DNA of 58,715 nucleotides, counting the filler, from Dugesia japonica (taxonomy: Eukaryota), in NCBI GenBank assembly GCA_001938525.1. It is 5 parts of 5 records of this genome, joined end to end, with 100 filler letters (N's around TTAATTAATTAA, not from the genome) between each part and the next. Parts side by side here need not be neighbours in the genome. Positions count along the whole stretch, not along the records: positions 12,625 to 21,666 come from MQRL01595132.1; 4 more parts are not named here. One strand, 5' to 3'. Below are positions 1-43,204 of this stretch, one piece after another. Under the pieces are notes generated by a model. It was not told the origin of the DNA. It worked only from the letters and a program-made list of their open reading frames with translations, and did not search any database. Both the position numbers and the translations under genes were made by a program. Within the stretch, counting starts at the first letter, position 1. Every line of letters starts with the position of its first letter.

Positions 1-447
1 TGACATCGGTGTCTTTGTTCTATTTTTATTTTCTGGCTGCTGATTGGTCAGATCTTAGAATCCTTATCATACCCTCCAGGAAGGTGGTATGTTTTTTCTT
101 TTTAGGGTCTTAGTTGCACTGGACTATTTTCTTCGCGATTTTTCTTGCTGGAATATTTTCTGACGTCCGGGGCCAGAGTTATCTGTAAAAAACAGATTTT
201 CNNNTAATTTTCGTTTATTTTTTGTTTAAAATTAATTAATTTTTTCTGTATTAATTAATTATTTTTTATTATTGTTTTTCTGGTTGATTCCTTTAAAATT
301 ATTATTAATTTTAATTGTTGATCAATAATGGGTTCATTTCTTCTACACCTTCTTCATTGCATGTTCATTTCTTTTTATTACCACCTTTATGCACTTTATT
401 TCTTTTCTTGATCTATTTTCTACTTTAGTGGGTGTTCCACCCCAACA
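1..447 (-). mobile_element. 5' part of the TGTTGGGG-family element (copy 0), cut by the window edge
   Basis: Ends in ...GTGTTCCACCCCAACA at 447, the reverse complement of the TGTTGGGG terminus. The body aligns by eye with 15150-15659 and with the reverse complement of 2757-3330. Confidence 0.75.
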
Positions 448-812
448 ATAATAATAATAACAATAATAATAATAATATTAATAAATTATAATGAAAATTA
501 ACAAAAATTTATAATTTTACAATATATTTGAATAAAATTAATTTAATTCATTAATTATCAGAACTTACAAATTGAATTGGTTTAGGTAAAAATACTTCTT
601 TGACGAATCCACTTCAAAGAACTTAATCATTATATTTATTTGTATTACCAATAGTAAAAGACCGATAATCTAACCAAACAACATAAATGTATTTAAAATA
701 CTCAAATATAATGAAGGATGGTAAATCAAAATTCATGTTAAATTGACCTTTGCCATTTATTGACTTAACAAATTTATATGGATCAATCATCATTGAAGGA
801 TCTGGAAAATTC

Positions 813-1490
813 ATGGCGATGAAAAATGGTGCTTATATATCAACATGAGGCTGCGTAAAGAATGGCTAAGCCCCAACAGAAAAGCAACTTTTCGAAGAAA
901 ACAAGACCTTCATACTCGAAAGATTATTATGTGCGTGAGGTGGGACTGGAAGGCATAATTTATCACGAACTGGTTGGGCGCAACCAAAAAGCTAATGCGG
1001 AGCTCTACGTTAAACAACTGCACCGAGTTAACAAAGCGATTCAGCCAAAAAAACCGAATCGGCAAAACAGTGATCTTCTGCAGCACGACAACGCTCGTTC
1101 TCACATCGTCAATATGACCAAAGAAGCGATTCAAAAACTCATTTGGGAAGTGTTGCCTCGTCCCCCATATTCTCTGGACTTGGCGCCGTCAGAATTTCAT
1201 CTCTTTCGATAGCTTTGAAATGCATTGAGCGGCGTATTATTCAATAATAGCGTGGAATTGAGCTATTGGTTGAACGAATTCTTTGAGTCAAAACCCAAGA
1301 AATTTTATTGCCGAGGCATTGAGAAACTAATTTAACCATGGGAGGCAGTCACCAACAACAACGGAGACTTTATTGTTGACTAATTCTTTGCAATTTCGTT
1401 AAAAATTCATATTAATTTGTGTACTATTCTTTTATATTGTATTCAAATAAAGTTATTTAAAAAACGCTCATGAATTATTACTCAACCAAA
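813..1490 (+). mobile_element. Mariner (DD34D) transposon, 5'-truncated, with disrupted transposase
   Basis: GDEKWCLY at 815, then LQHDNARSH and PPYSLDLAPSEFHLFR in ORF 862-1212. The frame continues past a TAG to ...NNGDFIVD* at 1383. The right TIR AAAAAACGCTCATGAATTATTACTCAACCAAA is followed by TA. Confidence 0.9.
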
Positions 1491-1780
1491 TAATTAAAAT
1501 TATTTTAAATTTGAATTATTTTATAAGATTTATATTGTTTAATTAATTATTATATCGTAAAATATTATCATTTGTTTTCAATTTTCAATAATAGGTAAAT
1601 AAGAATTGATTTTATGTTATAATCTAAATCGGTTACTATTTAGGAATTTATGACTGAATAAATTGGAAAATAATTCCTAATGTAGACTAATTCTACATTC
1701 CTAATAATTCCTAATCCAAAAATTTAAACAATAAAATTGATCTTCGCATTTTGAAAATAATATTTGAATAAACATGTTTG
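1491..1780 (+). repeat. Old local duplicated segment, uninterrupted copy
   Basis: Aligns with 2623-2756 joined to 6277-6385. Shared strings include AAAATATTATCATTT and CTATTTAGGAATTTATGACT. Confidence 0.75.
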
Positions 1781-1789
1781 AAAAGTAGT

Positions 1790-2610
1790 CAAAAACTAAT
1801 AGCTAAGAGAACATTGCAATCAATCACCAAATTAAATAAGATCTTGAGAAAGATTAATGGCAGAAGAATTGTATTTTATATAAAAGTTGAAATCAAATGA
1901 TTTACCTACAACAGTGAAATGTTTCAGAAAGGATAAAAAATGTTGTACCTGCTTGGGAGAAAAACAATCACCACATGCTATAAGCTGCAGTCAAAAGATT
2001 ATGAAATTAGTTATTACAAGACATAACAAGATTTTGGATATATTATATGTGAATTTAATGAAGAAGAAAAGGATATGATGATAATAAGAGAAGGCATCTC
2101 AGATTTTTATGATCATCATCTGTATCTGGATATTCAAATAATATTAACTCCATTTAGGAAATATATTGTTGATTTAAAAAGTCTATTCGATTCCAATTTA
2201 AGTTATGAAGTTGCAGATCCCAAGAATAAAGTGAAATATAATGAAAAATGAGAAAAACAGGAAAATTACTCGATAAAACATGACAATGCTTGCTGCACAA
2301 CTTTATCATTGAAAACTCTGGGTCTTAGTATATGGAAAATAGGAAATTGTTATAATCGATATGATTTAAGAATACTAGAGTAGATAAATTGCATGATTGT
2401 GAATTTGCAACGATTAAAAGCTTTCGGGATATATAGAAAATTTGCATAGCTTATGCAGAAATATATGAAATCAAAAAAGAAATATATGAGAAAATCGAAA
2501 GAATTAAGCTTGATGATCGTCAGTTGCATTCCAATATGCAGATAGCCAGTGCATACAAATGGGTCAATTTAAGATATTCTAGTACCTTAAGTTTTTTGTT
2601 TAATAAAACT
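1790..2610 (+). pseudogene. 3' end of a non-LTR retrotransposon with a restriction-like endonuclease (R2/R4/NeSL-like)
   Basis: A CxxC...H...C knuckle is followed by TRHNKILDIL, then a degenerate PD...VDLK endonuclease segment and KxxKY. AATAAA lies near 2602. Many stops. Confidence 0.7.
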
Positions 2611-3279
2611 TTGTATTTTTATATAATTAAAATTATTTTACATTGGAATTACATCGTTATTTGATTATTGTGTAGTAAAATATTATCATTTTTTAAATTT
2701 CTAATGATAAGCCAATAAAAGGGGATTTAATATATTAATTCTAAATTTGTTACGGTTGTTGGGGTGAAACTCCCAGTCTGAAGGGTCAAAAGGGAAGAAT
2801 TAATAAAGTAAAGGATTAAATGGAAAGTCAATCAGGAACAAAGCACCTATGATGAAAAAGAGATAGTACATACAGCAATCACAAGGAATTAGTTATGAAT
2901 AACCAGTATGACTAAATTAGAATAAAATTAATAATTAAATAAAAGATTAAAAATACCGAGAAGATGGATAAAAAGAACTTGGATGAATAAATCTAAACCA
3001 CATCGATAATAGTACTCAAAAGAAATTATGAAAATAATAATCAAAATAAAGAAAAATTACGAGTGAAAAACCATTAATTACCAAAAAAATATTAATTAAT
3101 TTTGCAAAAAAACAAAGCAAAATTAGTTACGAATTCGTTTTACACATATAACTGTGCTCAGAAGAATCGCAGAGACGCGTAGAAAGAAAATCTGAGAAGA
3201 ACTATAGACGAAGCATTAAGAGTTGAATATTAGAAAATCTTACCACCATCCAGAAGATTGCCACAGGGATTTGAAGATT

Positions 3280-3460
3280 GGGCCAATAAGAAATCTAAAA
3301 ATAAAAATAAAACAAAGAAATGACAATCACATGTCACACCAAAAATAGCCGCCAAAAGACGTGCCAAAAATCTAAAAAATTGGCATCAGAAAATTTAAAC
3401 TAAAAATAAAGACCCAATAACAAGAATGTCGAGTTGTATCCAAAAAGCTATATAAGCCCC
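3280..3460 (+). promoter_or_regulatory. Element-borne RNA pol II promoter (CCAAT boxes plus TATA)
   Basis: CCAAT at about 3284 and 3415. GTCGAGTTGTATCCAAAAAGCTATATAAG (TATA at 3449) is conserved in copy 2 (GTCGGGTTGCATCGGAAAAGCTATAAAA, TATA at 8625) and copy 3 (minus strand, GCCGAGTTGTATCAGAAAATCCTATAAAA, about 14990). Confidence 0.6.
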
Positions 3461-4679
3461 CCCCATTTTAGATGAAACAGACACAATTTTGAGCATAACT
3501 TGGTTAACACAGTTGATATTACTGACAAAATTGTTATCTATAATCAAAGCAGATTTCATTACTTATAAAGAATTTATAATTACGGACTACGGTGTACCAC
3601 GGAAACAACCCATCATAATTGGAACAGCGAAACTAAAGTGTTTTATTCCGATATTTGTTAAATAAAATAATTTCATATTTAACTCCAAGGAATAAATTTT
3701 CAATCTCTGTCAATTGATTCATCTGTTAGAAAACCCTGTTGCAGTTATTCAAAACCTAATAGTAAGTATAAATGTATAGATTTCGATTATTTATGTTATC
3801 ATTTAATTAATAACCATAATAAATGTGTTAATTCATTAAGTTTTGTTTAATTTATTTAAAGAAAAAATGTATTGAATATTTTCTATTAAAAGAAACCACC
3901 TTTCACTCCACTACTAATTTATATGCAAAAACCATGTCGACCAAGAGCATTCTTTTATCACAATCATAAAATTATGCTCGAGCCAGTATGTACATGCGAG
4001 ATGACGCTAATAGTCATGATGACCCGATCTAGATGAACAGCATGTGTGAATAGAGAAGTTGTATTTTTAATTCTTGTCTTTTAAGTACTCGTAATAGATG
4101 AACTAATAATGTAGCTAGACCCCACCGAGACACACAAACCCACAATTAATGTCATATATCACAGCGAAGGAGGCATGCCAGCAAAGCACATTACATCTAG
4201 ACCTCGATGACAAAACAGATAATTGATACAACTGTATTTTCAACACTTATTAGCAAGGGACACTCAGAAATATTAACGCAATAAAATTTGTGATTAACTC
4301 CTACTTGAAATAAGGTGATAATTCAACCCAGCAGGCCAAACAAATGTTTTTCGATAATTTGATCAGTAATTAATTTCAGAAGTTTACAAATGACTCATAA
4401 TTACTACTATAACATAATAGCATTGCTGAGAAAATGGAGACACGCCCCACTAACTCGTGAGTCGTTAAATAATTGTTCACTGTAAGCGGAGTTGTTACAG
4501 ACAAAGTAAAAATTTGTAAGGGTGTCAATCTCACATTATAATCCACCGGTTGTCATAGCCGTACAAATGAGTCTCATACTTAATAAATCTAAATTATAAA
4601 ATTAGGATTGTTAATAATCTTCAGATTACATCCACTATTATTAATCAGAATAATATTACTAGTGGTGCAATATTTATCC

Positions 4680-5040
4680 TTGTTATTTAATTAAATTCCT
4701 ACTATTCCTAATATTGCTATTAATATTATTTCTATTATTTTTATTATTATTACTGTTAGTACTAACATTGATATTATTATTCTTATTATTATTATCATGA
4801 TTAACATTGTTAGTATTGACGTCATAATTATTATTTTCATTATTTATATGAGTACTCTTCTTATTATTACAATTATTAAAATCATTACTATTATGTTTAT
4901 TAATATTATTATAATAATTATTATTATAATTATTAATATAATTATATACCCTAATAACCATCATTATATTATTATTATTATTACTATGGTTATTATGACC
5001 CTGACCATTAAGAGTATGGGTAATAATAGTACTATGACTA
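4680..5040. repeat. Degenerate (ATT)n/(AAT)n tract inside element copy 1
   Basis: Imperfect trinucleotide repeat. Equivalent tracts sit at the same relative position in copy 2 (about 9980-10225) and copy 3 (about 13380-13790). Confidence 0.9.
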
Positions 5041-16502: not shown

Positions 16503-17842
16503 CACTATTCATTATATATATTATATATTATAAGTGATATATATTATAAATTAATATCATAAATCTAAAAATTAAAATTAATTAAAAAATAGTATTAATT
16601 GATCCAAAATATATAGTATTTTAAAATCATAATTTAATTAAATCCTCTTTGTTAATTAATATTCATCTTTGTAATCTAAATACTTCGCTAACTTGTGACT
16701 CAAGCTTCTATGACAAAAATGGTTTCGATTTTTTACATCAGTAAATCGTTGAGTAAGTATGCAAAATTCTATTAAAATCAATGTAGTCATATCAAAATTA
16801 TTTGGTTTTGAAAATATGTTTTGTTAGATTTCCTGTTGTCTATGTCAGTTCCCAAGGAAAAAATTATCATGGAAACAATATGGAATGACAAAATGAACTA
16901 ATATTTCGTCCAATTTGAATACACTTGATTCAATAGTATGATTAAAAACACTTGGATCAATATTAAAAGCTTAATTACATCGAGTTATAGATAGACAGAC
17001 TAAAGATTATATGAGTGGATTATTATTGTTATTAGTTTTTATCATTTAGATTGTTGCCATCATTAACTTAACTGTTAGTTAAAAACTAATCAAAGAATTG
17101 AAATTTTTCAGTTTCCTTCTTTTCTTTCTCTTTTATAATGGCTACCAGCTTTCAATAAATGTTCATTCACAGTTGTCTTATTGTTCATTTCTTGTTTAGC
17201 TATTCGTACTATATAGCGCGTTTATTAACCAGGTATCTGTTAGCCAAAGATCGAGACAAGGCGATAAAAGATGAACAATCACAACATGGTCCATTACTAT
17301 ATTATTCACCAATTATATTGATATGTATTGAAGCTTAGTGTATTGCATATTGTAATAATTTTTACTGATAGTTAACTGTGTCCTGTTTCAATTCTCAACA
17401 TATCGATAGGTGCAATTATATAACCATAATTTAAAAACAAACCGAGATAGAAGTAATTTTAATGATTGGAAATTTCAAGAACTTTTAAGTGAATGCATTA
17501 TTATTCACTTATGTCATGTTTTATATGAAAAGAATTCTCTGAAATTTCTAAAACAAAATTTATGTAAAATAGAAATTAATATCATTAGTTCAATATTATT
17601 TATAAAGATTCTCAAAATTTTCGTTTTAAATATATTTGCAGTATGAATTTTCTTTCAGATAAAATTGTATTAGAAACTCTTCCTATCACTTTTGTAGTCA
17701 ATGTCATTTTACCTCCAAATAATACAATTGATTCTTTTTCGCTTTATATTATTAAATTATCCAAACAAAGAAATTTTGTTTATATGAAGAATTAATTTAA
17801 AACATCAAAATTTTGTGCAATTTTTTGAATTAAACAAATTTA

Positions 17843-19036
17843 ATGAATAGATCCAGAAAAGAAAAGCCATCGAAACATTCGCCATTTGTTGAGAAACTTA
17901 AATGCAGGCGTAGTACGAGAATTCAAAATCAAAAGTTTGAAGTTTTTAGAAAATGATTGAAAAATATGAATTTATTGTAGTGAAATAGATGGCACTTTTC
18001 AATCTTCTAAATCTTTAGTTATGTCAACTCCTAAAAAGACAAATAGACACACCGGGCCATTGCATGATATCTCACATGAAACTGGGAGTGTTTTATCAGT
18101 ATTTAGGTTTATTTGTAAGTACTTATTAATCGATGAGTTTAGAATTCATCTCTAAAAAGATATCATAGAAATTATGATCCTGATATTGAAATTAGACAAG
18201 TAAATGAGCGTCTTAGTAAACGTTTAAGTAATAGTTGGGCTGATCAATCTATATTAAATGATGAGGAGGAGGAAGATTTTATTAAATATTCTGAAAAACT
18301 GCGGAAACATCAAGTGATAAATTAATACGTGCTCGTAATAATATTTGTTTCTAGAAAAATATTAAGCTTGAGGATGATGTTGATGTTTTGGCTCGTCGTC
18401 AAAACGATATAGATAAAGGAAAGTCTAAACAATGTTACAAAAATTATGTTTATGAAATTGCTAAGGAACGTCGAAAACCTTTTCAGCCTCGAACACCAAA
18501 TAAATTTCTGAAAATGAGCAGGCGAGGTTGGGATGGCTTAGTAAGAAAATGGAAAAAGCATATTCATGCATGGAATGAGCCGAAGTTTGTGTTTAATACC
18601 CAAACCTTAACTTTTTATTTTAATTTTTAGATTCGAGGAACTATATGCAGCAGGAATAGAAGTTGACTGTTGTAATAGTGATGTGGCATCCATCGCGTCT
18701 TTTAAGGAGAGTTTGATTGAGTTTGACGATAACAAAGATAGTATTAAAGAAGTATTTAGTGAAGAAGAAGAAACATTACAAGTAATGTTTTACAATCTAG
18801 GTATATTTTTATGTTTTAGGGAGCAAAAACTAGAAAAAGAATATTATCTCCTATTTTAAAAGAGGAATTGACAGATGACACTATTCAAAATTCATTGTAA
18901 GTCGTTCAAAAATATTGATATGTTATAATTAAATTTTAGACCTAAATTAGTTGATCTACATAGTGGATTGACAAATGATGCAGCAGCATTAAATATGAAT
19001 TCAAATAAGCGAATTAAATTATCCGAGTTCAAATAA
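17843..19036 (+). CDS. SLBP: Histone RNA hairpin (stem-loop) binding protein, 7 exons, 311 aa
   Basis: Exons 17843-17934, 17981-18098, 18143-18313, 18355-18584, 18631-18781, 18820-18896 and 18940-19036 splice at GT-AG introns into a stop-free 936-nt ORF. RNA-binding domain LARRQNDIDKGK..CYKNY...PRTPNKFLKMSRRGWDGLVRKWKKHIHAWNEP with TPNK; upstream SWAD motif; acidic segment after the domain. Confidence 0.92.
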
Positions 19037-19402
19037 TAATTATTAAATATTCGATGTCTATTTATATAATTGTATTATTTCGTCATTCTTATTCGTTTAT
19101 TTGTTTGAAAATTTTATTAAACTTTCGTTATTATTATTGTAATTAACCTAGATTTTAAGATGTCTTTATTTTGCAATTACTAATCAAGTAAAGTTAAAGT
19201 CATATGGATGATTGTTACATGTAAATTGTAAATTAAAATTGAAAATATAGTAACATTTAAGGTTATTATATTTTAACAGTAAAATTTTTATATTGCAATA
19301 TCGAAATTAAATTTTCATCAGAAAATGGTTATTAGCAATATTGCCAAAAATTAATTGAGAACTTTGTTTTAACCCTATCAAAGGTCAATTCAATTATTTT
19401 TA

Positions 19403-19927
19403 TCTACAAGAACTATAGAATTTCGAACTACACTTGGGATTTTCCACCATTCTACCGGATTCGACCCCGAATGGACCCTCATATTCGAGTAATTTTACTG
19501 TTTAGTCCTCAATGTCTACCCAATCGATAGTAGTATGCTGTCTTATTTTTGTATTTCCGGCACAATCTGCGTCGATGGGACCACCCATTGTTATGGCTTC
19601 TGCCAATGTCTTCCTGATTTCTGCCTTTAATGAAACTTGATTATTTATTTTTAACTTTCCTGTTCTAAAAGCATCTTGACGGTCTTCTGGTTACACATTG
19701 GCTGATCTTGGTATAAGTTTTGCTGACAACACTGTTGTACGACTATGAACATCACAATAGTATTCAAATATTGCTTTTTGTACTTGATACTCGGTTTCTT
19801 GATAAATATAATATTTAGCTAGTTGGGCAACCTGCAATCTTGTAGGATACGCTTCCCTACATTCCATTGCATCTATTAGCGAATAAATTCCTGCTGGGCT
19901 AGGATTATGACAATCGTAAGCAATCAA
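19403..19927 (-). pseudogene. Chuvirus-like / herpes gB-like (class III) envelope glycoprotein, N-terminal ectodomain, degraded
   Basis: Single frame with two internal stops: LIAYDCHNPSPAGIYSLIDAMEC...YIYQETEY...YYCDVHSRTTVL...QDAFRTGKLKI...DADCAG...DWVDIED*TVKLLEYEG...KCSS. Motif order matches chuviral G (LIxYDC, SLxDxxEC, YYCGMHSH, RxHxTG, CxG, WxxVxxQ). Confidence 0.7.
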
Positions 19928-21666
19928 CCTATTGGTTTGCCTTAATTTATCCATCATCATTAGTATTGTTTGAGTAGGATTCTCTAATCCTCTCATTGTC
20001 TGCTGTAATCTATTTGCTGGTTCGAAGACAAGTATTTCGTTATTTTTCATATTAATTTCATACCTTGGGGCTTCGCTATTTTGGCGTGTTTGTTCGTTCC
20101 ATTCGTTGGAATTAACTATCCATTATCAAATATCGTTGACAGCTTTGCAACTTTCTGTTTTAATTTTCTGGTACTATTTGCACTTAATAATGAATTCCGA
20201 ATAATCATTGCCAATGCTGTTAAAGCCCGTCCATTTGTAACGCATTTGGCAGCTAACGTATGTATTGTGTTCCTGGTATTTTCATCAGGCAATTTCCTTG
20301 GTAACTTTCTAATGATTTTTTGTGCTTGGATCCCATCGTCAAACTTTTTCAATTTTTAACTCAGGCTTTAGTGACCTGATTAATTGCAGAATTTTAAAGC
20401 ATGTGTCTGACATGGCTGGTTCATTCTATACATCACCTTGGTCGATTTCATCAATTATAGCATCTAATGCCCTATATCGGATTTTTCTGGCAACGGTTCC
20501 GCCCACCGAATCGACATTAGTATTCTTTTTTGGTCTACCTCTCTTTTGTCAACCATTTGTTATCTTCTCTCTGCTGGTTCTCTAGAAGTTGATTCTCCCA
20601 GATTGTTACCTTGTACGTTTCTGATATTACTTGTATCTCTAGAGAATATTTTTCGTGGTATATTCGGTAACTCGACCGGTTCTGCCTCATCCAAATCCCC
20701 GGGATTCCTTGATTTTGTTGAGGAATATTTATTTCCTCCTCATGCACTATTTGTAATTCTTTATTCTGTAAATCCTCAGATACTTCTGGCAATCACAACA
20801 TAGTCCAATGGCGATCCCATGGCTCCACCATCAACACATTGACTAGTGTAATTTTAGTTGGTAAACAGCCAACATCAACTTGGTTACCCCAAATTACTAT
20901 CCAAAATGTTTGCGGGTATGTTATTTCGATATCCGTTTTCAGCTTCAGTACCCTTGTAAAACAAGAGTATATCTTTATTTGTGGTACCACTTCACCTGGT
21001 ACTCTTATATCGACTATAAACGATGCCTGTCTGGCTGCATCATGCCTTATGGATTCTCCATTTTTATAATTATCATTCGAATTTCATTTTGATAACTGCT
21101 TGGTTTATCAACCAGTGATAATATCAATGGCATTACCTCTTTTAAAACTTCAGTTGAGATATGTAACGTCAACATCCAACTTAATATGCTTTTAATGTCT
21201 TCATCCCATCTTGGGACTGAAAATATCTCATTTCCTAATTTCTGTATAATAGAGTGAGCGTCTTGTAACTTCCATATGTCCCATAGCAAATGTGCTATCT
21301 GGGGTGATAGTAGCTACTTCCACTACTTTCTCTTTAGCTTGTATCTTGGTTTTTATCTCAAGTAATATTCCACATAACAACCGATATTTATCTATGTCTA
21401 ATTTTTTGTCATACAAATACAGATCAAATACTCTGCGTTTGATCTTTTTCAGATAAGCTATTATTTTAGCTACTGGCTCTTTTACATCTAATTCCAGAAG
21501 TACTCTGCCTCTTTTTGGTAATTGTATCTCCAACTGAGCCTTTTTAAAATCCCAGTCGCACTACATTTTTTAACCAATTTTTCTGCTTATTTCAGTAATT
21601 TCTTTATAATAAGTCTTCTTGGGTCTGACTTTAGATAATATCTGCATTATATTATCTAACTTTTCC
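19928..21666 (-). pseudogene. Degraded polyprotein of unknown domains preceding the env-like segment
   Basis: Chain of intron-free, frameshift-linked ORFs (21533-21228, 21289-21047, 20990-20793, 20792-20535, 20352-20116, 20050-). Includes an AT-hook-like KRGRPKK at about 20530-20548. Cut by the scaffold spacer at 21667. Confidence 0.55.
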
Positions 21667-21766
21667 NNNNNNNNNNNNNNNNNNNNNNNNNNNNNNNNNN
21701 NNNNNNNNNNTTAATTAATTAANNNNNNNNNNNNNNNNNNNNNNNNNNNNNNNNNNNNNNNNNNNN

Positions 21767-24700
21767 TCAAAATAAAATTTATTTGTAAAAAGGTTCAAAT
21801 TTTCAACAATAGTCTTCTTCAGATATTTACTTATCTATTAATCGTATCTTTTAATTATATCGATTTTAGAATCTTACATGGCGTCACGTAAGCAGCACGC
21901 AATCCTACAAAAGTTCATATTTAAAGAACGAGAATCTAAACTTTTCGTCTTCATTAAAAATAGAAAGAACCCTACAACCATCAAAGAGCACCTTTATGCA
22001 GTGAAAGAATTCGTAAAACTATTTGATTATTCTGGCATCACTGAAAGCGAAAAGAAGGTAATCTTCTTAAAATACTCTGACGACGATCTTATAAGAGAAA
22101 TTAGATGCGATCCAAATTTGGTGAATCTAAGCAAACCATTGAAAGATACGAAGAAGTTTTAATAAACTTATGCAAAGTCAAAAGTCAAAAACAAGCTTGA
22201 CAATGACTGTCTTTTAAATAAGACGGGAAAAGAGCGAATCTATAACGGATTACGCTAAGAGACATAAAATGCAATGTCTTAATATTAATGAAACGAAGGA
22301 AAAAATCCTAGTTAGGGCATTTATGAATGGGTTGATTAAATTTGTAAACTATTAAGGATGAGAAACCTAATGACGAAAAAGAAAAATTTTATATTTAATA
22401 TGAAGTTCCAGAAAGACACGATTAAAGCCTTAAAATTAGAAATAAAGAAACTCAGGAGAGAAATAGAAGAATTGAAGACAACTAAAAACACGAAAAAAGA
22501 TTATCCGAACAACAAATTTAACCAAGAACATAAACCAGAGTATAACCAATAGAAAAAAGAAGGGCAAGTCAATTAAAAATGTTTTGAATGTGAAAAAGAA
22601 GGATATATCGCGCGAGTTTGCGGAACCAAACAATGTTTTCAATGAAGATGAAGAGATCACATTGCCCAATTTTGTCAAGAAAACAATAAATTAAGGTTGT
22701 AAAGTGAAAATAATGGGAATACAAATGAATATAATTCAATCAAATTAACAGAACCAGAGGACAATGAAGATATTCAAAACAAAACAATTAGTATAACAGA
22801 AACAAAATGGAATAAAGAAAAATTGAAAGAGATTATAAAAAATCTAAACCCGTCAATAGAAGAAAAATACGTCAACTTCATAAACGGCCAAGGAGAAAAA
22901 CCAAACAACAGTTAAAAAGATACGAACCAACTGTCATCACTTACTCCAGGCCAGAAAAAGCAAGAAACAAACCGATTGTAGAATGCCAAGTAGCAGGTTA
23001 ACAATCAAAACTATGTTCGATACAGGTACTGTCAAAAATGTCATAAGCCAGGAGCTAGCGGAGCGTAGAAGAAAACAGAATCCAANNNNNNNNNNNNNNN
23101 NNNNNNNNNNNNNNNNNNNNNNNNNAAATGGTACTACTGAAAACTATCTCGGTAAAATTCAATTGAATGTAGGAATCGGGTAGGTAATAACAGCCCATGT
23201 CTTCAATATCATGCCAAATATTTCCCCCTATTTATTTATCGGGTAAAGAAGTATGAAATAATATGAAGTTTTAGTGGACAATGCCAAGGATGGAATAGAA
23301 ATACAGGGCGTCAAAATTCCTTTTCTGTACAAAACTATAGCAGCTGAATCAATAAAATACTAATTCCAACCGCATTGATGAGTCAAAATGCGGGAATCGG
23401 TAGAAATGAGACTCATGATAATAATTATAATGATCAAAATTATAAAAAGATTGTAGCAGAGAATGTCAGTATTAGAGATGAAGGAGAATATTTTGTGAAA
23501 GGTATGGTGATAAATGAAGCAAAGCAGAGAGTAAAAGATATGAATTAAGATTTTTTTTATTTACAAGTGATAAAAAATGAATGGAAGAAAGGAATCTTTT
23601 AATTTTTGAAGGCTTAGTAAAAAGCAACGATGGATAAATATGATCTAAAAGTTACATTCCTAAAAGAGGTAACAAAAGTATACATACAGGAACGACATTA
23701 GAATACGTAGAGATAATCCAGCTGAAAAATAAAGCAAACAATCAATTAATAGTTTGACAGAAAAGGAGATGAATAATGAGAAAAGTCTGGTTAACTAGAT
23801 TTTAAAAGAAATATAAGAAAAAATGATAAGAGAAAACAGCTCATAAAACGTGAAAAGCACAATGGAAATTTTAGAAAGAAACAAAGAGATATTCAGCAAA
23901 TACAAAATGGATATAGGGAAACGTATTTGGTATACCATCAAATTAAAACAACAGATAACTAGCCCATTGCGTTCAATCTTCGCAGAATCCCAAAAGGCTT
24001 AGAAGATGAAGTAGATCACATGATAGAGAATTTGAAAGAAGCAGGAATTGTGAAGCCTAGTACTTCACCGTGGAATTTTCCAATTGTTGTAGTAAAAAAG
24101 AAAAACAGGAATAATGGAATGTGCGTAAAATACAGAGCACTAAATGCTAAAACAAACAGACCTAAATTTCTAATACCATCAGCTGAAGAAATCTTCGACA
24201 GCACAGGAGGGGCTAGATATTTTTCATCTTTATATTTATAAAGTGGTTTCTACCAAGTGCCAATTGCGGAGGAATATAGAAAAATCAGCATTTAGCACAA
24301 AGTATGTGCAATATGAAATCACAGGAATGCCTTTCGAATTATGCTCAGCTCCCGCCACATTTCAAAAGTTAATAAATATCGTGCTGAAAAGTTAGAATTG
24401 AAAAAATGTGTCATATACCTGTATGATGTATTAATTTCTGGGAAAACATTAGAAGAGCACAATGAACAATTTAAACTACTTATAAAAAGAACCAAAGATG
24501 CTGGGCTCAAACTCTCACCATAAAAGTGTGCGTTCTTACGAAAAGAGGTAAAATATCTGGGACATGTCGTGACACAAGATGGAGTTGCAACAGATCCTGA
24601 AAAAATCGCTAGTATAAAAAATTGGAAATTACCAGGTTGTAAGAAAGAACTGCAAACATTTCTTGGATTCTGTAACTACTACAGNCGGTTTATTAAAGAG

Positions 24701-26783
24701 TATGCGTTAATATCAGAACCACTCAGTGGCATGCTGCGAAAGGAGAACAAATTTACATGATCAGATGACAATAAACAATGTTTCTACGAACTCAGAGAGA
24801 GACTTACAAAATCACATATATTAGGTTACCAATAAAAGATGGTAAATACATTTTGGATACCGACGCATCACATAATGCAATCGATGCTGTATTGTCACAA
24901 ATACAAAATGGAAAAGAAAAAGTTCCTAATTATAATTCAAAAACCTTATCAAAAAGCCAGAAACAATATTGTATTTTTCAAACATAGATATTAGAATAGA
25001 ATTATTAGCTATTTATACGTTTATTATGAAGTTCAAACCTTACCTAATTGGTAAGCCATTCGTGGTGTGAACAGACCATCATGCGTTAAAATGGATGCTC
25101 AATTGGGATAGTCCAAATACATCACAGTATTGTATTTGGAAAGCAGAGCCAGAAGTATTCGACATGATAGTAGAATTTCGAAAGGGTAAAGAACGCATAA
25201 ATGCGGATGTTCTATCTAGACTACAAGACTGCGAACAATGCATGATCAAACATTTTGAACCTAAAAAAAACTAAACGTCAAAGTAAATCTCATAAAATCA
25301 AATGGGGAACAAAATCATCTCAGAAAAGGTATTGAACAATATAAAAGATAATAATAACGAATGGCAACAGGAAAATGATCCCATTATCAAATTAATACTT
25401 AAAGCTTTAAATAAAATAAAGCTTTAAAGACTATTTTCTGGTAGTACCAAATCATAAAAGAGAAGAAATTATTTAAAAATACTTTAAATTGTTGAGTCAC
25501 ACTAGAATGAAAAAAACTGCAGAAGTTATACAAAGAGAATATTACTGGCTCTCATTATAAAAAGATGTGCAAAATATAATTGCTAAATGTAATCCATGTA
25601 ACCACAACAAGTATCTTAACGGAAGGATTAAAGCACCATTGCAAAACATCACTGGATACGAACCATTTCAGATTATAGGAATGGATATTACAGGATTATT
25701 TAAAGAAACAAAGAAAGGATACAAATATATACTGGCTGTAATAGACTATTTTTCAAAATATATCAGTTTGATTCCACTAAAGATAACAACTTCTTAAGTC
25801 ATTTGTGATGTTCTATGAGAACACTGGAAATCTAAATTTGGAATACTGGAGAAAATCCATTCAGATAGAGAAAGTAATGTTTGCTCTAGAATATTCCGTG
25901 AATATTGTAGAATATTAAAATACGGAAAACATTTACGTCACCGTACTACCCTCAATGCGACGGGTTGGTAGAAAGCCTATTTAGAACAGTGAAGCCCATG
26001 ATAAGCGCAGTTATGAAAGACAGAGAAATCATGGAATGGAGCTCGACATTACCTATAGTAGAATACGGCATTCAAAATAAAATACAGAAAACAATCAGAT
26101 ATTCACCATATCAAATCCTGTTTGGAGGAAGACCGAAATTGACCTATGGAATATCGCAAACACTAACAAAGACAAACCAAACTCAGAAGAATACGTAGAA
26201 AACATGGAGCAAAAAATAAAGATAATACATAATAAAGTGCAAGACACTATTGAATATCACAATATTAAGAAACAAGAAAATTATAACAGAAATTAATGGA
26301 GCAATGAAATCGTGTGTGGAGACAAGATAATGATCAAATTCTAAGAAAATAGAGCACTTAAACGAAGATACATTAGGCAGTTTGTACTTAAAGAAATAAA
26401 AGATAAATAAACTTTTATTTTACAAAACGGAAATAATACAATACAAAAAAACTAAAATCAAATCAAAAAGATTCTCTAAGACACAGAGCTATAAATCAAT
26501 CAGCGAAAAAACGTCAATAAGAAAACGAATTAACCCTAAACAAGAGGAAGAAGATCAAACAAAAAGGCGCTGCCCAATGCGAGCTACCAGGAATCCGAAC
26601 CCAAAGTACAGATGATCAAAGAGAGGGGTGTGATATAAATTGAAATTAAATTCAATTTATATTGAAATCAAAACATGAAAAAACCAAAAATATTAAAACT
26701 TTGTTTTAATATTGATTGTTATGAAATATATATGTTTACTTATCTATTAGTCGTATCTTTTATTTATATTGATTTTAGAATTT
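21767..26783 (+). mobile_element. Near full-length decayed Ty3/Gypsy LTR retrotransposon
   Basis: The 5' LTR ends CTTACA at 21878. PBS TGGCGTCACG (tRNA-Ser-like). Gag has CFECEKEGYIARVC, protease MFDTG, RT SPWNFPIVVVKKK and YLYD(D), RNase H DTDAS, integrase HHCC/GMDITG/HSDR/YYPQCDGLVE. PPT AAAGAGAGGGG. The 3' LTR 26629-~26783 shares TTTACTTATCTATTA.TCGTATCTTT with the 5' LTR. Confidence 0.92.
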
Positions 26784-29700
26784 AAAAAAGTCTAAATTTT
26801 CCACAAATCACATTCATTTTGCTACCTTCAAAAATTCTACCCCTATCAGATAAGATTGATTTTGGTTTTCCAAATCGGTAAATCCAATGGTTCTTTATTG
26901 CATCTGATATTGATGTTTCGTCTTTTTTACTAAGAGGTATCAGCCAAACTAGTTTGCTAAATCGATCAATAATAACAAGCAAGTACTTTTGAGTAGACTC
27001 ATACTCAGAAAATAGGCCACATCTATTACAAATTTTTCTAATGGTCCAAATTCCTCTCTAAGGAACAATAGTTCTTTTGTTCGACTAGAGAAAACCTTTC
27101 TTTTAACACATTTTTCACATTTTTGAATTTCGTGTTCGTTATTTCTACTCAAATCAGGCCAGAAGTATATCTCTCAAATATATTTCACTAACTTCTTGCA
27201 TGCAAAATCACAAAGTTCTTCGTACAAGTATTTTACTAATTTTGGTGCGTAATTTTCTGGTATAAAAATTAGTTTCTTCTTTTGAATTATTACAATATTC
27301 CTAAATAATCTCAATTTATCTATACTTCTAAAATAGAACATAAGGCAAAATAGTGCTACACTATTTAAAAATGAAAGGAACAAGTGACAAATTTATGACT
27401 GCCAAAAGATCAAGAAGCCAATATAATTGAGTACATGCAATTGAAGATGAAGATGTCAAGACAAACGATGGATATAAGGAAGTGAATGAAAGTGATTCTG
27501 AAAGGCAGTACCCAAAAGGCAGGGCTTCAAGAGTAGAGTAGTTGGTTGGAGCCATCCATTGTTAAATAAAGTTATTGATTATCCTCAAGAAGTCGAAAAT
27601 ACAATGATATCTGGAGAGTGACAGAAAAAGTATACAGGTTCTTAAAGAGGGAAAGCTTTGTTGATTGAGAAATAGAATGGGTTGGAACAATTGAAACAGA
27701 ACATAAAACAAATATTTCGTATTATAAATTGCAAGGCAGATCAAGTGTTACGGTATCAATTCAAAGAAATAAAGTCAAATGTTTATTAGATACAAGAGCT
27801 CAAATTAACGTTATAAGTTTGATTTCTTTTAATAAATTACAAGAACTACATTTAAAAATGAGTGATGAAAGATATAAAGCATTCCTTTAAAAATCAAATT
27901 CATTAAAATCTGAAAAGTTGCCAGTGCTGTACATAAACCGAAGGGCAACAGTTTAAAACAGAACTGTTTAATTTTAGTACTAAAAGTTGTTTGCATTTGT
28001 GAATCTTCGTCTAACACAACTTGATAATAAGCGTGTCCTAAGTCTATAGATGAACAAATAGTTGATCCATATAAAGTATCCAAAAGAGTATTTATATCAG
28101 GTACCGGGAAAGAATTTTTTAAGTTACTTCATTCAATCGTCGAAAATCCAAACACATACGGAAAGTATCATCTTTCTTTGGTAATATCACTAAAACAGAA
28201 TTCCATGGGCTTTGGATGCCATAAAAATTGATCCACATTTTTAATAAGGTTTTCAATAAATGGAGTTTTGTGAGCAACATAATTTAATGCCGTCTTAACA
28301 CAATCACAATCCGCATATGTTGTGTTTCAGAAGAATCAATCAATTTTCCTTCTGCCAAGAGTAATTCACATAATTTCATCATTTGATTCCACCCAATAAA
28401 ACCAGGAGAAATAATTTTAACAACTAAAGTTTCTTTTATCAAAGGTTTCTTTTTCCACACAATTTGTATAAACATCTTACCAAGACATGATTCATGCTTT
28501 GAAGAAAGATCTCCTGACAATTTAACTTCTGACACTAAGTGCACCAATTTGGATCCAATTTTCTTCATCCATCACTGTTATTGATGCTCCAGAATTCAAC
28601 AACATTTTAATATCATAGCTATTACAATTCACAATACTCCATTGCCGTCCATCTAACTTCTGAAACATTCTACATTCTTCATCATTCATCTCATTTTCCT
28701 CTTTTCTATATCTATTAATTATAGAATTTATTGACTTAACTCCACCGATGAGATATCTACATAGAGTTGGTAGTAGTTCATTTCCATTTCGCTCTCATCC
28801 ATACCATAAATTTCCATTAAATTATTCGTCTCTTCCACACTTTGCTCTTTGTCATGAATACACGATAGTCTTCCATTTTAATGACCGTTGGTAACCAAAT
28901 AACAGTTTTTGAAATAATGGCCATTTTTACTACAGATTAGGCATTTATTCTTAAGCAAACATTTATTTCGTCTATGATTCATATTACCACAACAAAAGCA
29001 TGAACATTTTTGCAAAGTTTCATCGCGTGGAGGTGCTTTATCCCTGTATTGATTATAGAATTTCATTGCAATCATCTTCATTGATCTTTGTAATCTAATA
29101 GCTTGATGAGAAAAATTCCCATTATTGCTCAATTGTTAAAAATTTTATCTGGATCCTTATATGCAGTTGATTTTAAAGATTGATTTCTATTTCCTGAAGA
29201 TTTAAAATATACTGAATTCCTTTGGGGCCAAAAATGTGTCTTCCCTTCTGAAAGTTGATTATAATATTAAGGTTTCATGACATGGATTACTAGATGCGGA
29301 ACCAATTTTTCTAAATTCGTTGCAAATTCTCTTCTTCTTTCGTCAGACATTGATGGATCAAAGGCACAGGATTCATGTAGTTTCTCACTCTGTAATCCTT
29401 GCAGAATAAATGCTCTTGCAATTTCTTCTATTGTTAATTTCTTTTGAAACACCCATGTGACTATTTTTTTAAACTAGAATCTCAAAATTTCTGTACTTCT
29501 CAACTGTTCTTTGTTTTATTAAAGTTAATTCCTTTACTTAATCATATATCGATTTCGTATTTGTAAAGGTTTCCTTAAACCATTTTTATACTTCCTCATA
29601 AGTAACAGAATCATTTAAATAGGAAAAAGTCTTCCCACAACTGTTTTGCATTATCTCTTAGAAGCTATATATAACGCGAAAGCAAATTCCGTTTGATTGA

Positions 29701-29835
29701 ATGTAGCAAAATCTTTCATTCTGTGCATCCAATCTTAGGCATCTTGACTGAGACCATCAAAGAAACTTGGTTTCGGAATTAACATTTCTTGCGTTTTCTG
29801 AGGCAAATTAGAAAAAATCTTCACTCTTGCTAACA
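26784..29835 (-). mobile_element. Second decayed Ty3/Gypsy element (gag-PR-RT...INT), truncated within the integrase
   Basis: Gag has two CCHC knuckles (28878-29132); protease LLNSGAS (about 28590); RT SSIDLGHAYYQV and LPFGL (27829-28083); integrase YFWPD, IIDRFSK, ILSDRG (26784-27340). Confidence 0.85.
27345..27850 (+). pseudogene. Opposite-strand Gypsy gag-protease fragment inside the second element
   Basis: VKCLLDTRAQINVISL protease motif at about 27775-27825 on the + strand. It sits where the RT C-terminus and RNase H of the minus-strand element should be. Confidence 0.6.
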
Positions 29836-30643
29836 ATTTAATTTCGGCGTGGTTTTCGGTAAAAAGACTTGTCATTAATATTAAGGATTTATTTAAGAAT
29901 AATATAATATGTATTATTCAATCAAAATTGACTGTTTAAATAATCACTATTTTCTAACTAATAATAATAATAATAATAATAATTATTATTATTATTATTA
30001 TTTATTGCTTAGGAAAATAGTTATATCAGGAATATAACATACTAATAAATTAACAGAATTTTATTCCCAAGTATAATTGCATTTTAATTGAAAGTAATTA
30101 ATTTCAATATGCAAATTTTTATAACATTCAATAAAATTTTCTTTAGTAAAATATTAATAAGAAATTTTTAGAATAACCNATATTTAATATATACTCGGTT
30201 TTACTGTATCAGTAAATTCAAATAAAAGCACTTAATTGATAATTTTTAAATATAATTTAACCACATGTAATGTGTAACATTGAATTCAACTTTAGATAAA
30301 AATAGAAAAACTTCAGTTTTCATTTATTGTTTCATTAAAATTCAAAACAATTTTCGTAATAATTCTATAAGGACCAAATTTATTTTACAGATGGATCTCA
30401 TTAGCGATATGTATTTTTCGAAAACACGCAAATTAAAAATATTTAAAAACTTTTCTATTTAATTAAAAAAAATTTTGAGAGTTAATTTAAAGATGAAAAT
30501 TCATAATTAAAATCAACCAATAAAATTTCGATAAAATTTAAAGAATTGCGCGAAAAAAATCATTTGCAAATTCTTTTGCATTAATTTTCATTTATGCATG
30601 ATTATATTTTTATAAAAGATAAGATAAGACTATATATGCTTAC

Positions 30644-33711: not shown

Positions 33712-36700
33712 CTATTTAATACTATAGTGACCATATGGGACACTGTTATTTTTACCTACCAACACGCGTTTATCATCTCTTTTAGTAAGCGCTAATTTAT
33801 TTGACTTAATGCTGTATAATTGATGATTTTTGGTAGTTATCCTAAATTGTTCCACTGAGACCAATTTGTTCTCATTATAACAGTCAAGGTAAGACTGGTG
33901 AGAAATTTCAGTTTTCTTCAATGTTATGTCTTTTGCTTTCATGTTGTTTTATCTCCGAGCAGGCTATAGCATTTCGGTCTCAAAAATACCCATTCTTCAT
34001 ACTTCTTCCTTTTATTCTCCTCTTTGAATTTTCCTATAACTGAGTTCATACTGTTACTATAAATAGCATGATCTTTATCATAATTTGAAGTATCAAGTAG
34101 CTGATCTCTCACCATACTTGCTGTTATTTTTTCTAATTTNNNNNNNNNNNNNNNNNNNNNNNNNNNNNNNNNNNNNNNNNNNNNNNNNNNNNNNNNNNNN
34201 NNNNNNNNNNNNNNNNNNNNAACTCAATGTACTGAAGTTTGTACATTCTCAATTTTGATAGGTCAAGTACAGTTTGTCTTATGTAGCTCGGACGATTTAA
34301 ACAAACTATATCCTTATTGAGAAGAACAGCTGTTAAATCATCATCAATTTTTGTAGTTTTCTTAAATCCGGCTTTTGATGTATATGTAATCAGCTTCTTT
34401 GCCGAATTACATAAGCGCAGATTGATCCGGTTCTTAAGATTCTCCACTGATTTTCCATATAAACTGTTATTTAACAGTTTATAATAGTTTTTATCCAGTT
34501 TCGTAACACAATTTGATCTGAGAATTGTGTTGGTGTTGATATAATTCTCAAATATTGAAGCTTGGCTGAATTTAACTCCCCGATGAACCTCTGTTACTTT
34601 AACTCCTAAACTTAAATACATCTGCAGCAATCTCCAGCGCACTACGTAATTGTTCTTGGAGTAGTGCGTTAACATTAATTTATTCACTTTATAGCCTGGA
34701 GCGCTTCTATGTTCTACTGCAACAGGTAAATCATTCAAAAAATCATGAATTTCTGCTGGAATCACCATGCCCACCTCTAGTGTGTATCCATATGGCAATG
34801 AATCTAGGTTTGCATTCTCACACTCTTCCAAAACCCTATCTAATCCATCATAGACCCATTCAAAATTTGCAAAGGTCAACTTTTGACTCAGTGCCCAACC
34901 ATAAAGATTATTAATATCTATATACAAAAGGTCAACATTTTTACTGGTGGCAACATAGTGCTTGTTAACAAATGTTAACCTTCCTCTTATAACTCCTTCG
35001 AAAAAGGTATACATATCGTTATCTTGTAGCAACTCAATTGGTTTTTCCAATGACATCAACGCAAATGCCCATGACATTCCAGGTATTCCAAAGAAAATCA
35101 ACGGCTCCAAATTGTTGTGTGCTAAAGACTTTGCACGGAATTGCTGGAAAACATCAGTTAATAAATACACATCCAGCTTTAAATATAATATCATATAGTC
35201 CAGCAAATATCTACATAAAAATATTTCCCACATCTATAATGCTTTCTTATACTCTTCCCTACTAACATCCTCCCATTTTTGTGGCATTTGTTTTGTTTCT
35301 TCCAGAACCTGTAAGCTCGTTGCAAAACTGTACGGAACTTGTTAATACNNNNNTTGAGGATATGATGAAGATCATATCCTCGTAAATTATGAAAGACCAC
35401 TGGTAGTTGAATATGCAATTTTTTACTTAAATTGCATTGGTTATATGCTGCTCCTATATATTTCCCTGTGAAATGGTCATGGTCACGAACGGAATCTCTT
35501 ATTTCTTTCTTACATAAGTAAAAAATTTATCTTCTTTATTTATTTATTCTTTATCTTGATCCTTTGTTATTATAATTTTCTTTTTTCCCTCTGTTTCGTA
35601 ATAAGGAAACACAATGTTTTTGCTTATTTCCTCCACAGCCTTTAAGAAATTATACACACAGTCATCTTCAATAAACTGTATATATTTTGTTTCGTTATTA
35701 AAATTATTTACCAACAAAAGACCAGCCGAAACAGGTAAATGTTTCTGAAAATGCTTATCGTCTGGAGGTAAAACTGACTCAAAGTCCGCATATATAACAA
35801 AAGGTGATGTTATTGTTTTTGAATAATCCTTAAAAGTAAGGTTCTTCTTCGATAACATCATATACATTGTGATACCTGTCTGTATTTTTTTGCAAGTTGG
35901 TTCATCCTTCTCATAAGCTACTCCATTTTTGAATCCATTGAGACAGTTAGAACACTATGTTGATTGAATACGTACACCATGTCTTTTATTACCCCGGTTC
36001 ATTAGTCGATTTAGATTTATTACTGCAGTGTAATGAAATCTGTTGTTATTTTCCAGTAATAATAGATATATTTTCTCTCCATCTATCACTTTTGATCGGT
36101 GTATTATGTCTACATTTAGATGTTTTATGATTACTTCATCTTCTTCATCCTCCGCTGATTCTTGATTCCACGATAGGACATTGATGGATAGTCCTGGATT
36201 TTTTTTTTCGAACTTTGGTATATCATTCAGTTTCATCGGCATATCCTTTTCGTTGAATATAAGCTCCGACATGTATTTCTTAAATTTAATAGCTCGGTTT
36301 TTATTTATTTCTCCAACTTGCGCTTTTTTGGTAGCAGCAAGAATACTGTAAGTAAAGCAGTAATTATCATTGTTCTTGATGTTAAGAATAGCTTTTTCCT
36401 TTTCTAGATCTTTTAGTGTTGGAATATAGCTTTTTCCTGAAAATCGACAAATATCTGCAGTTTTTGTGATCTTGAAATTAATTTCTAGTATTCGATTCAA
36501 CATCCAACTATAGCCTAGTTCGCTTCTTATTGTTATTTTTTCATTTAATTGGTTGATGCCATCTTCAAAAAAGTTATCAGATAATGCAATGGCTCAATTT
36601 TACATTCTACAGGTTTTAAACTCCTTTTCTTCTCCATCAGCAGTTGTTGTTATTATTTTGAACTCGACATGTACCCCAAATTGTATTTTAACTTGCTTCA

Positions 36701-40386: not shown

Positions 40387-40984
40387 AGTTACATAAAAAA
40401 TGAAATTTTTTTTCATACGCCGAGGGGTGGTTTAACTCCCTAACCTTGGCTACACTACTGGTACAAACTCCTACTTTACAGTGATGAAACTCGTATTTTC
40501 TATGATAAGACCAGTATTTCAATGATAAAGCTAGTACTTTGAATGATGAACTATTATTTTCTAATGTTGAAAGTCATATTTTCAATAACAAAACCATATA
40601 ATAATGTATAAGTTATAGTCAAAAGATTGATTTTATTGACTGATAATTAGGTATTTAAAAGGAAAAAAACCCATGTAAACCAAAGTGCACGCAGGGAACC
40701 AATGATCAAGCAGAGATGCAAACAGATGATGACAAATGATATATATTTTATTGAAAAGGATACATATAATTAAAACAGAATCTAAGTGACATGTGATCTA
40801 TTATGTAACAAATACACACATAGTTTATTATGTAATAATTGATTTTTAGTTGCTATGTTAAGTAAGAAAAAGTCCACCGGAGAAGAAGAGCAGATAAATT
40901 TAGAAAAACANNNNNNNNNNNNNNNNNNNNNNNNNNNNNNNNNNNNNNNNNNNNNNNNNNNAAATAGTATTTTTAACATTTTTC

Positions 40985-42000
40985 TCTACTACTCTTTATT
41001 GGTATTCTCTCAAACATACTCGTTTTATCCTGCTACAAATTGCTTGAATGGGTTTAGGAATAAGACTTCGTTTGAGAAACCTCTTTGTGAAAGAATTCCA
41101 ACTGGTACAACGTTATATAGAATGTCTGATGAGAAAGAATTATTATTTAGGGATTACTATAAGATGATCACTTCTTCTTTCGTAATTTACGCTGATTTCG
41201 AGTCAGTTTTGCCTAAAGATTCAAAATACTTTCAACTACATGAATTGATTTCTGTTGAACTTTTACTTGTAAATAATTTTACTAATGAAGTTAAGTATCA
41301 TTAGTTCGTCGGTTATGATTGCATTACCGATTTCTTGCAAATGATTGAGGATTTAATTAAAACTGTTGTCCAACTTTATTATGAGAAAAATAGTAGAAAG
41401 TTGATAATAATTACAGATGATGAGGAAATAAGTTTTAAAAGATATAAAATCTGTTATTTATGCAAAAAACAAATAATTAATTCAGTAAGACATCATAATC
41501 ATTTTACTGGTAAATATATAAGACTTGCTTATTCCAAATTTAATGTAAGTAGGAAAATAAGGTTTGATAATAATAATTTGATAATGATTATTTGAATGGG
41601 GTATGATCTCCATCATATATTGAAATACGGTCTTAGTAGATTTTCAAATTGGAATATTTCTTGCATTCCAATTACTAGTTAAAAGTATTTGAGTTTGACT
41701 GCACATATAGATAAAATTACTGTAAAATTTATAAATAGCTATCAATTTATTAATTCTTCTCTTGATGCTGCTGTTAGAACAATAGATTCAACTCCATTAA
41801 CATCAAAGGAGTTTAAGGATAGCCGACTTATTAACACTAAGAGGATATTTCCTTATAACTTTGCAACTAGTTTAGAAGTTTTAGAGGAAACTCAAGTGAT
41901 GCCACCTATTTAGGATGGAGTTACTGAGGAAAATTATTTGAAAGCTGTTGAGATGTGGAAATTTTCTGGTTGTAAGAATCGTTTAGACTATATGCTTGAC
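40985..42000 (+). pseudogene. Second pPolB fragment (exonuclease and endoVII region)
   Basis: CLNGF, SFVIYADFESVLP, RHHNHFTGKY, GYDLHHIL, FINSYQFINSSL, IFPY. Collinear with 35950-35200 but diverged. Confidence 0.88.
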
Positions 42001-42780
42001 AGAGGTCTGGGCACCAAAATTCCAAATTTGAGATTTTTCAACACAAAACCCTATTTATTTCATACCGGATAAACTTTGATTATTTAGGTTTATATATTTG
42101 GAATCAGCGGAAAATTCTCTATCTAATAGATCTGTTTATTTCCTGAAAAAACGAGATAAAAGTTTTTCAAAAAAATTTTATGTGTGAAGAATAATCTCTG
42201 TCGAATTCTGCATCAATTGATGTAAAAATTTCTACAAAGAAATTTTTCAAAAATTTTCAAAAGTTCGGAGGTTCCGGATTCTCTTAAAAAAATTTGATTT
42301 AATAAATTTTAAAATTTTCATATTATTTAAACAAATTGAGTTGTTCACCCGAATTTCCATAAAAAATCCTATAAAAATACATACTAAATACACTGTAAAA
42401 AATACTACCGTTTAAAAAGTCTAAAAAATTCTATGCTTAAAAAGCCTATAAAAATTTCCCAACTAAATACGCAAAAAAAATTCTACTGTTTAAAAAACCT
42501 AAAATTTGAAAATAATTCGGGAAACTTTTAAAAAATACGAGCAAAACTTATGTAATCGCACATAAATTTTGTTAGCCACCTAAATACACATGAAAAATAC
42601 TGCCTCAATTAAGTAATAATGTCGCGACGAAATTAATTACATTATGTAATGCACAAAAATGTGTGCTGCCGCCTATTTACATTGGAAAAATACTGCCTCA
42701 CTTATGTAATAATCCGATTACAAAAAGAGGAGGGTGGTACTGTATGTGTGCAGTGGTTCACCGCTACTATTTTTTTACTA
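42001..42780 (+). repeat. Possible Polinton-like terminal region
   Basis: Short repeated units (CTAAATACAC..AAAAATACTGCC). Ends GCTACTATTTTTTTACTA, similar to the terminus at 38064-38080. Confidence 0.35.
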
Positions 42781-43204
42781 ACAAATTTATAATTTTTAAT
42801 TAAAATCAACTTTTTTCAAAAAATTAATACGTCTCACCCAACTTACAGAAAAATTTCAATTAAATATTAAAATCACCCATAATTAATTCTCTTTTCATCC
42901 AAACCTTTTCCCTCAACGAAAAGAATTCTTAACACCTTTATACTACTTATGAACATCACCTAATCAAATTTGAGAACAAAAAAATCAGAAATCAAAGCAC
43001 AATCGACCACCATCATACTCCTCATCACATCACCTTTCCAGCAACACATCACCCACCTAAATCCATCAACTATCAACAACACTCCAAAAAATCAACGCTC
43101 AATAACTCATACGTTGTGCCAGTGCGCCACTAGCCCTTATAGACCAAACCATCTATCCCATCCAATAAGTACTTTAGGCAATGTATAGCTAATATTTTAA
43201 TTCC

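Follow-up and report, generated by a model that had tools for sequence, protein, structure and literature searches.

A broken gB-type envelope fragment behind the SLBP gene of a likely planarian, probably a remnant of a Burro-type giant Ty3/gypsy retrotransposon

We analyzed a stretch of 58,715 nucleotides, here called the window, which contains a minus-strand envelope (env) sequence next to a host gene. The features of this locus are collected in Table 1. The host gene encodes the histone RNA hairpin-binding protein SLBP (Pfam PF15247, E 8.9e-23). It comprises 307 codons without an internal stop, has six GT..AG introns of 38 to 46 nt that were seen in RNA reads, and is expressed. It is 74% identical to P0002, and its RNA-binding exon reaches 92%, versus 48 to 51% for beetle proteins. 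P0002 is of the same source type as P0009, a protein with an env very close by eye to that of Smed_errantivirus_1; P0002 is therefore likely the Schmidtea mediterranea protein, and the host is likely a different dugesiid flatworm, for which Dugesia japonica would be a fitting candidate. The GC content is about 30%, which, together with very short introns, fits planarians. We also observed a second SLBP-like sequence, about 87 to 88% identical and of similar depth, in both contig runs; it is likely a duplicate gene or a very divergent allele. In the interval between SLBP and env, a 36-nt stretch (19348-19383) is common to an abundant, otherwise unrelated transcript, with 41 and 147 reads that continue into other sequence.

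Table 1. Features of the env locus and its neighbors (positions along the window)
Feature	Position	Strand	Remarks
SLBP (histone RNA hairpin-binding protein) host gene	17858..19037	+	tail to tail with env fragment; outside the element
Multi-copy retroelement fragment, extent	19400..21560	-	from summed DNA contig depth
Env frame	19403-20050	-	motif series all in one frame; stops read as X
gB-type (class III) env, N-terminal third	19403..19969	-	signal-peptide region, AYDC start, following beta-rich part
Likely Bcl-2-like domain remnant	20122..20322	-	directly upstream of env, other frame
110-codon open stretch, part of env-bearing element	21231..21560	-	ubiquitin-like by eye only
N44-TTAATTAATTAA-N44, likely scaffold gap	21667..21766	.	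pattern four times in window; probable gap linker; bounds the upstream view
Decayed Ty3/gypsy element	21786..26806	+	RT, RNase H, integrase; own terminal repeats

Several other decayed elements share the window. The terminal repeats of the plus-strand Ty3/gypsy element (21823-21872 and 26732-26781) are 92% identical. We rejected this element as the carrier of env: its strand is opposite to that of env, it has a separate pair of terminal repeats, and its pol shares only some 30% identity with the pol sequences of env-bearing relatives. A second decayed Ty3/gypsy element, with RT and integrase matches, lies on the minus strand at about 26800-29850, tail to tail with the first. The minus strand at 34133-36593 contains pieces of a family B DNA polymerase of the protein-primed type (DNA_pol_B_2, E 4e-12 for 34133-35233), and further family B fragments were seen by eye at about 40843-44778. 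We take both sets to be likely decayed Polinton/Maverick-like elements. A transposase fragment (Transposase_1, E 7.8e-6) is present at 859-1212 on the plus strand.

The env frame contains the whole motif series and the two stops for which it was singled out in a preliminary description of this DNA. Both internal stops, at 19691-19693 and at 19502-19504, are TAA, and one more stop follows at 19400-19402. That description had also noticed a short deletion. The deletion is real and removes eight codons near 19786, as judged from the aligned relatives, but it lies before QVQKA, between YQETEY and QVQKA, rather than after QVQKA. Related copies in both contig runs part from the window sequence at 19787, as would be expected if the window copy had lost these codons. 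Env is cut off at about 19403, a truncation missing from the preliminary description; the intact relative P0014 extends 417 residues further. Thus, some two thirds of env (about 420 residues) are absent, and the open frame holds no complete ectodomain with a membrane anchor. Compared with 27 aligned relatives, the window copy retains six of the eight conserved cysteine columns; one of the lost cysteines fell inside the eight-codon deletion, and the other was substituted. No second occurrence of the env fragment was found within the window. The window env is a pseudogene fragment that encodes no functional protein and no working fusogen. The preliminary description had raised a potentially infectious retroelement; this copy cannot be infectious, because it is broken and truncated.

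We then asked to which family of fusion proteins the fragment belongs. The read-through translation matched the Pfam family PF24664 (Monjiviricetes_fusion) over profile positions 9 to 155 of 653 with an E value of 2.5e-6; the score, 26.2 bits, is 0.8 bit below the family cut-off of 27 bits, for a query that is a broken fragment of 243 residues. A phmmer search of 1.84 billion proteins gave 37 matches at E <= 0.001 (best 5.9e-29, 25 to 50% identity), and PF24664 was present in all 15 of these relatives that were scanned, at 48 to 320 bits. These matches exceed what chance would give. A stretch of 189 residues was modeled with AlphaFold2 from 28 sequences; the model had long beta strands and a mean pLDDT of 76. 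Compared by Foldseek with models of viral proteins, it gave 15 matches at E <= 0.001 (best 4.9e-8, 8 to 19% identity). Where named, these were glycoproteins of chu-like or related negative-strand viruses; one was an uncharacterized protein of a chu-related virus. Against the PDB, herpesvirus gB held the top Foldseek ranks, with a best E value of 9.5e-3 and no match at or below 0.001. At about 12% identity and a TM-score of about 0.25, gB is distant kin at the level of the fold only. In VIA-align, the env model matched gB at Z 4.2 (rmsd 5.9, 104 aligned), and secretins tied with it. A PDB sequence search with the fragment returned no match below E 0.5, and a word-based comparison with longer proteins yielded none out of 700 candidates, which is weak evidence. 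Because the profile and Foldseek evidence combine, the predicted membership of env in the class III (gB-like, chuvirus-G-like) fusion protein family holds. The initial reading as a chuvirus-G-like class III env of an LTR element thus agrees with the Pfam match, with the Foldseek comparison that it had proposed, in which similarity to class III proteins was present, and with the polyproteins of env-bearing relatives.

The closest sequence was the ENV of Smed_errantivirus_4, with 67 of 128 aligned positions identical (52%) in a hand count against the supplement row of PMC13524379. The best relative from the library was less similar (46% over 129 columns). That about half of the residues differ from Smed_errantivirus_4 points to a separate family, whose host is likely a different planarian. 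We built an env tree from 24 of the 37 phmmer matches and the window sequence, with short and partial matches excluded. The tree has no viral outgroup, because P0014, used as a query to find named relatives among chuviruses or BEL elements, gave five unnamed proteins. The window env fell in a group of seven rows (92/67) that includes P0009, whose env is nearly identical by eye to that of Smed_errantivirus_1. Its terminal branch was long (0.95, versus 0.19 for its sister P0006), which fits decay. Among the database proteins, P0009 and P0033 join a host domain (MRP-L47 and Ion_trans, respectively) to env pieces and are likely chimeric gene models. The env-bearing polyproteins P0007 and P0042 each have a run of several consecutive aspartic-protease domains; in P0042 (4844 aa), up to seven stretches matched, and ankyrin and C2H2 domains are also present.

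The relatives also indicate what kind of element carried env. P0012, P0028, and P0042 encode, in a single frame, env and then protease, RT, RNase H, and integrase. A protease follows env in P0007, P0008, and P0013, and a CCHC knuckle precedes it in P0007 and P0017. The full pol of P0012, P0028, and P0042 matched RVT_1, RT_RNaseH, Integrase_H2C2, and rve and matched no BEL-specific Pfam family. Peptidase_A17 and DUF1759 are markers of BEL elements. Only relatives showed an env that continues in frame from gag and into a Ty3/gypsy pol; at the locus itself both ends are missing, through the truncation at 19403 and the gap at 21667. The preliminary description had proposed inspecting the flanks for pol and LTRs, and we found no gag, pol, or LTR belonging to the env element within the window. 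For this reason, we infer a Ty3/gypsy carrier from the relatives only.

Two further parts of the element were considered upstream of env. Fourteen long relatives include sequence upstream of env. By eye, 6 of them have a helical segment directly before the env signal peptide, and a Bcl-2-like segment was not apparent in the other 8. Pfam Bcl-2 matches to the pre-env segments were weak (P0014, E 9.6e-4; P0029, 0.012; P0017, 0.055). The pre-env segments of the relatives clearly match Bcl-xL: when the profile of alignment A2 (seven proteins) was compared with the PDB, the best 60 of 138 matches were all Bcl-2 family members, with a best E value of 8.7e-4. When six pre-env segments were made into a profile and the whole window was scanned with it, the top match was the minus-strand interval 20322-20122. 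Its domain E value of 0.044 is weak alone, but it lies directly upstream of env, where such a domain would be expected. The fold model of P0029 was poor (pLDDT 46), and VIA-align matched it to several Bcl-2 proteins at Z 6 to 7.3; we did not count this result because the Bcl-2 proteins rank under an unrelated top row. The open stretch at the far end of the element had no match in Pfam or the PDB and none usable in the Atlas. A ubiquitin-like profile from four relatives gave a domain E value of 5.9 at 21467-21372, which is not significant.

We examined DNA contigs and RNA reads for the copy number and expression of this sequence. Summed contig depth over 19429-21423 was 114 to 1443 in run X1 and 276 to 4864 in run X2, versus 10 to 43 over 17700-19295. 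A depth far above that of the flank in both contig runs indicates a multi-copy family, with depth not being equal to copy number. Single collapsed contigs of the env element family had depths of about 550 to 1000, versus 10 to 20 for single-copy contigs. RNA was drawn from two poly-A runs, one quarter of each. At 85% likeness, RNA depth over 19429-21660 did not exceed 2.7 in X9 and was 0 in X12, and depth over SLBP was 26 to 105 in X9. Thus, related copies are numerous, and the env locus is near-silent in the two RNA libraries. Contigs of two studies cover the junction between the element and SLBP, at 19044-19640 with eight differences and at 19035-19589 with six. One of the two contig runs may be the source of the window itself. 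Because contigs of two studies cross the junction, an assembly error does not account for the truncation.

Envelope-carrying elements have been described in planarians, and the earlier statement that they are little documented in flatworms did not stand. In section 7 of PMC6431247 (2019), the planarian Burro polyprotein is given as Gag, a Ubi/SUMO-like domain, BCL-2, Env, PR, RT, RH, and IN; its env matches mononegavirus fusion proteins, and Dugesia japonica is said there to have decaying Burro fragments with stops and frameshifts. Nine flatworm elements with a gB-type env were reported in PMC13524379 (2026), along with unannotated ENV matches, 5 in D. japonica and 20 in Girardia tigrina. Smed_errantivirus_4 and five other GAG-ENV-POL errantiviruses of Schmidtea mediterranea (PMC13524379) resemble the window element in their HSV/gB-type ENV and their multiple copies, whereas what the window has is limited to the N-terminal third of env, in broken form, and about 1.6 kb upstream. 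The giant LTR retrotransposons Burro and GYPSM1 of Dugesiidae have an env that follows a Bcl-2-like domain, to which the window has a weak match in the corresponding place, and like the window copy they occur as decaying fragments in D. japonica; in contrast, the window locus is without gag, pol, and LTR, and its candidate ubiquitin-like domain was seen by eye only. Troyka, as presented in the accessible part of PMC12440569, was considered for comparison and was not relevant.

The preliminary description had left room for a viral integration or a BEL/Pao carrier, but the nearest kin of the window env are env domains of planarian Ty3/gypsy polyproteins. That a chuvirus (Jingchuvirales) glycoprotein gene integrated directly, as a nonretroviral endogenous viral element, would fit the top Foldseek matches among viral models, which are chu-like G (best E 4.9e-8), the Pfam family name, which derives from Monjiviricetes, and the one chuvirus genome from a flatworm listed in Table 1 of PMC10084718, as far as that table goes. 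Chuvirus G and, presumably, the env of the mosquito BEL/Pao element Anakin belong to the same Pfam family as the window env and share its predicted fold. However, the viral models are 8 to 19% identical to the window env, compared with 25 to 50% for the phmmer relatives and 52% for Smed_errantivirus_4. The DNA upstream of env belongs to the same high-copy unit and resembles the Bcl-2-like domain of the retroelements, the neighboring frames scanned contained no N or L domain, and five pattern matches in viral contigs yielded no confirmed relative. These data largely refute a chuvirus integration, the chance of which we consider very low. An env from a BEL/Pao element of the Anakin type is highly improbable. 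Homologous gB-like env genes are known in BEL/Pao elements (PMC13524379, section 14); against this, the three relatives whose pol is full appear by their Pfam domains to be of the Ty3/gypsy type, with no BEL-specific family, and the Smed elements were assigned to Ty3/gypsy by HMM (PMC13524379).

It is also very unlikely that the host co-opted the fragment for an antiviral or regulatory role beside SLBP. In favor of such a role, the fragment lies about 370 nt past the end of the SLBP reading frame, and DNA contigs from two studies include the junction. However, stops, the deletion, the loss of two cysteines, and the truncation all speak against such a role, as does RNA at or below 2.7 (X9) and at 0 (X12) over 19429-21660 next to an SLBP at 26 to 105 (X9).

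In the best explanation, which we hold with high confidence, the fragment is what breakage and truncation have left of a gB-type env; its source was likely a giant Ty3/gypsy LTR retrotransposon of the Burro type, and its host is likely a dugesiid planarian. The parent polyprotein would have had the order Gag, Bcl-2-like domain (as in several relatives), env, protease, RT, RNase H, and integrase, and it was probably cleaved by its own protease. An internal signal peptide would have directed Env to the membrane. There, as its predicted fold suggests, Env may have trimerized as a class III fusogen, which could let particles enter other cells. Retrotransposition likely placed the window copy behind SLBP, after which both ends would have been lost and the rest decayed. 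Because envelope-carrying elements are already described in planarians, the window copy is an ordinary fossil of this kind. A bolder reading is that the host carries a young, high-copy subfamily of this element with Bcl-2 and a still intact env, whose particles pass between planarian cells while apoptosis is blocked; we consider this improbable. The infectivity of Burro is raised as a hypothesis in PMC6431247, and the broken window copy cannot test it for Burro-type elements. No infectious planarian particles were shown in the titles and opening abstracts of the literature searched, which is a weak negative.

Taken as a locus, the fragment has little importance, being one defunct piece of an element type already known. 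What it contributes is a further record of a lineage like Smed_errantivirus_4, present in many copies, from a host that is likely a second planarian species. If the young subfamily with an intact env did exist, it would be a true invertebrate retrovirus of flatworms.
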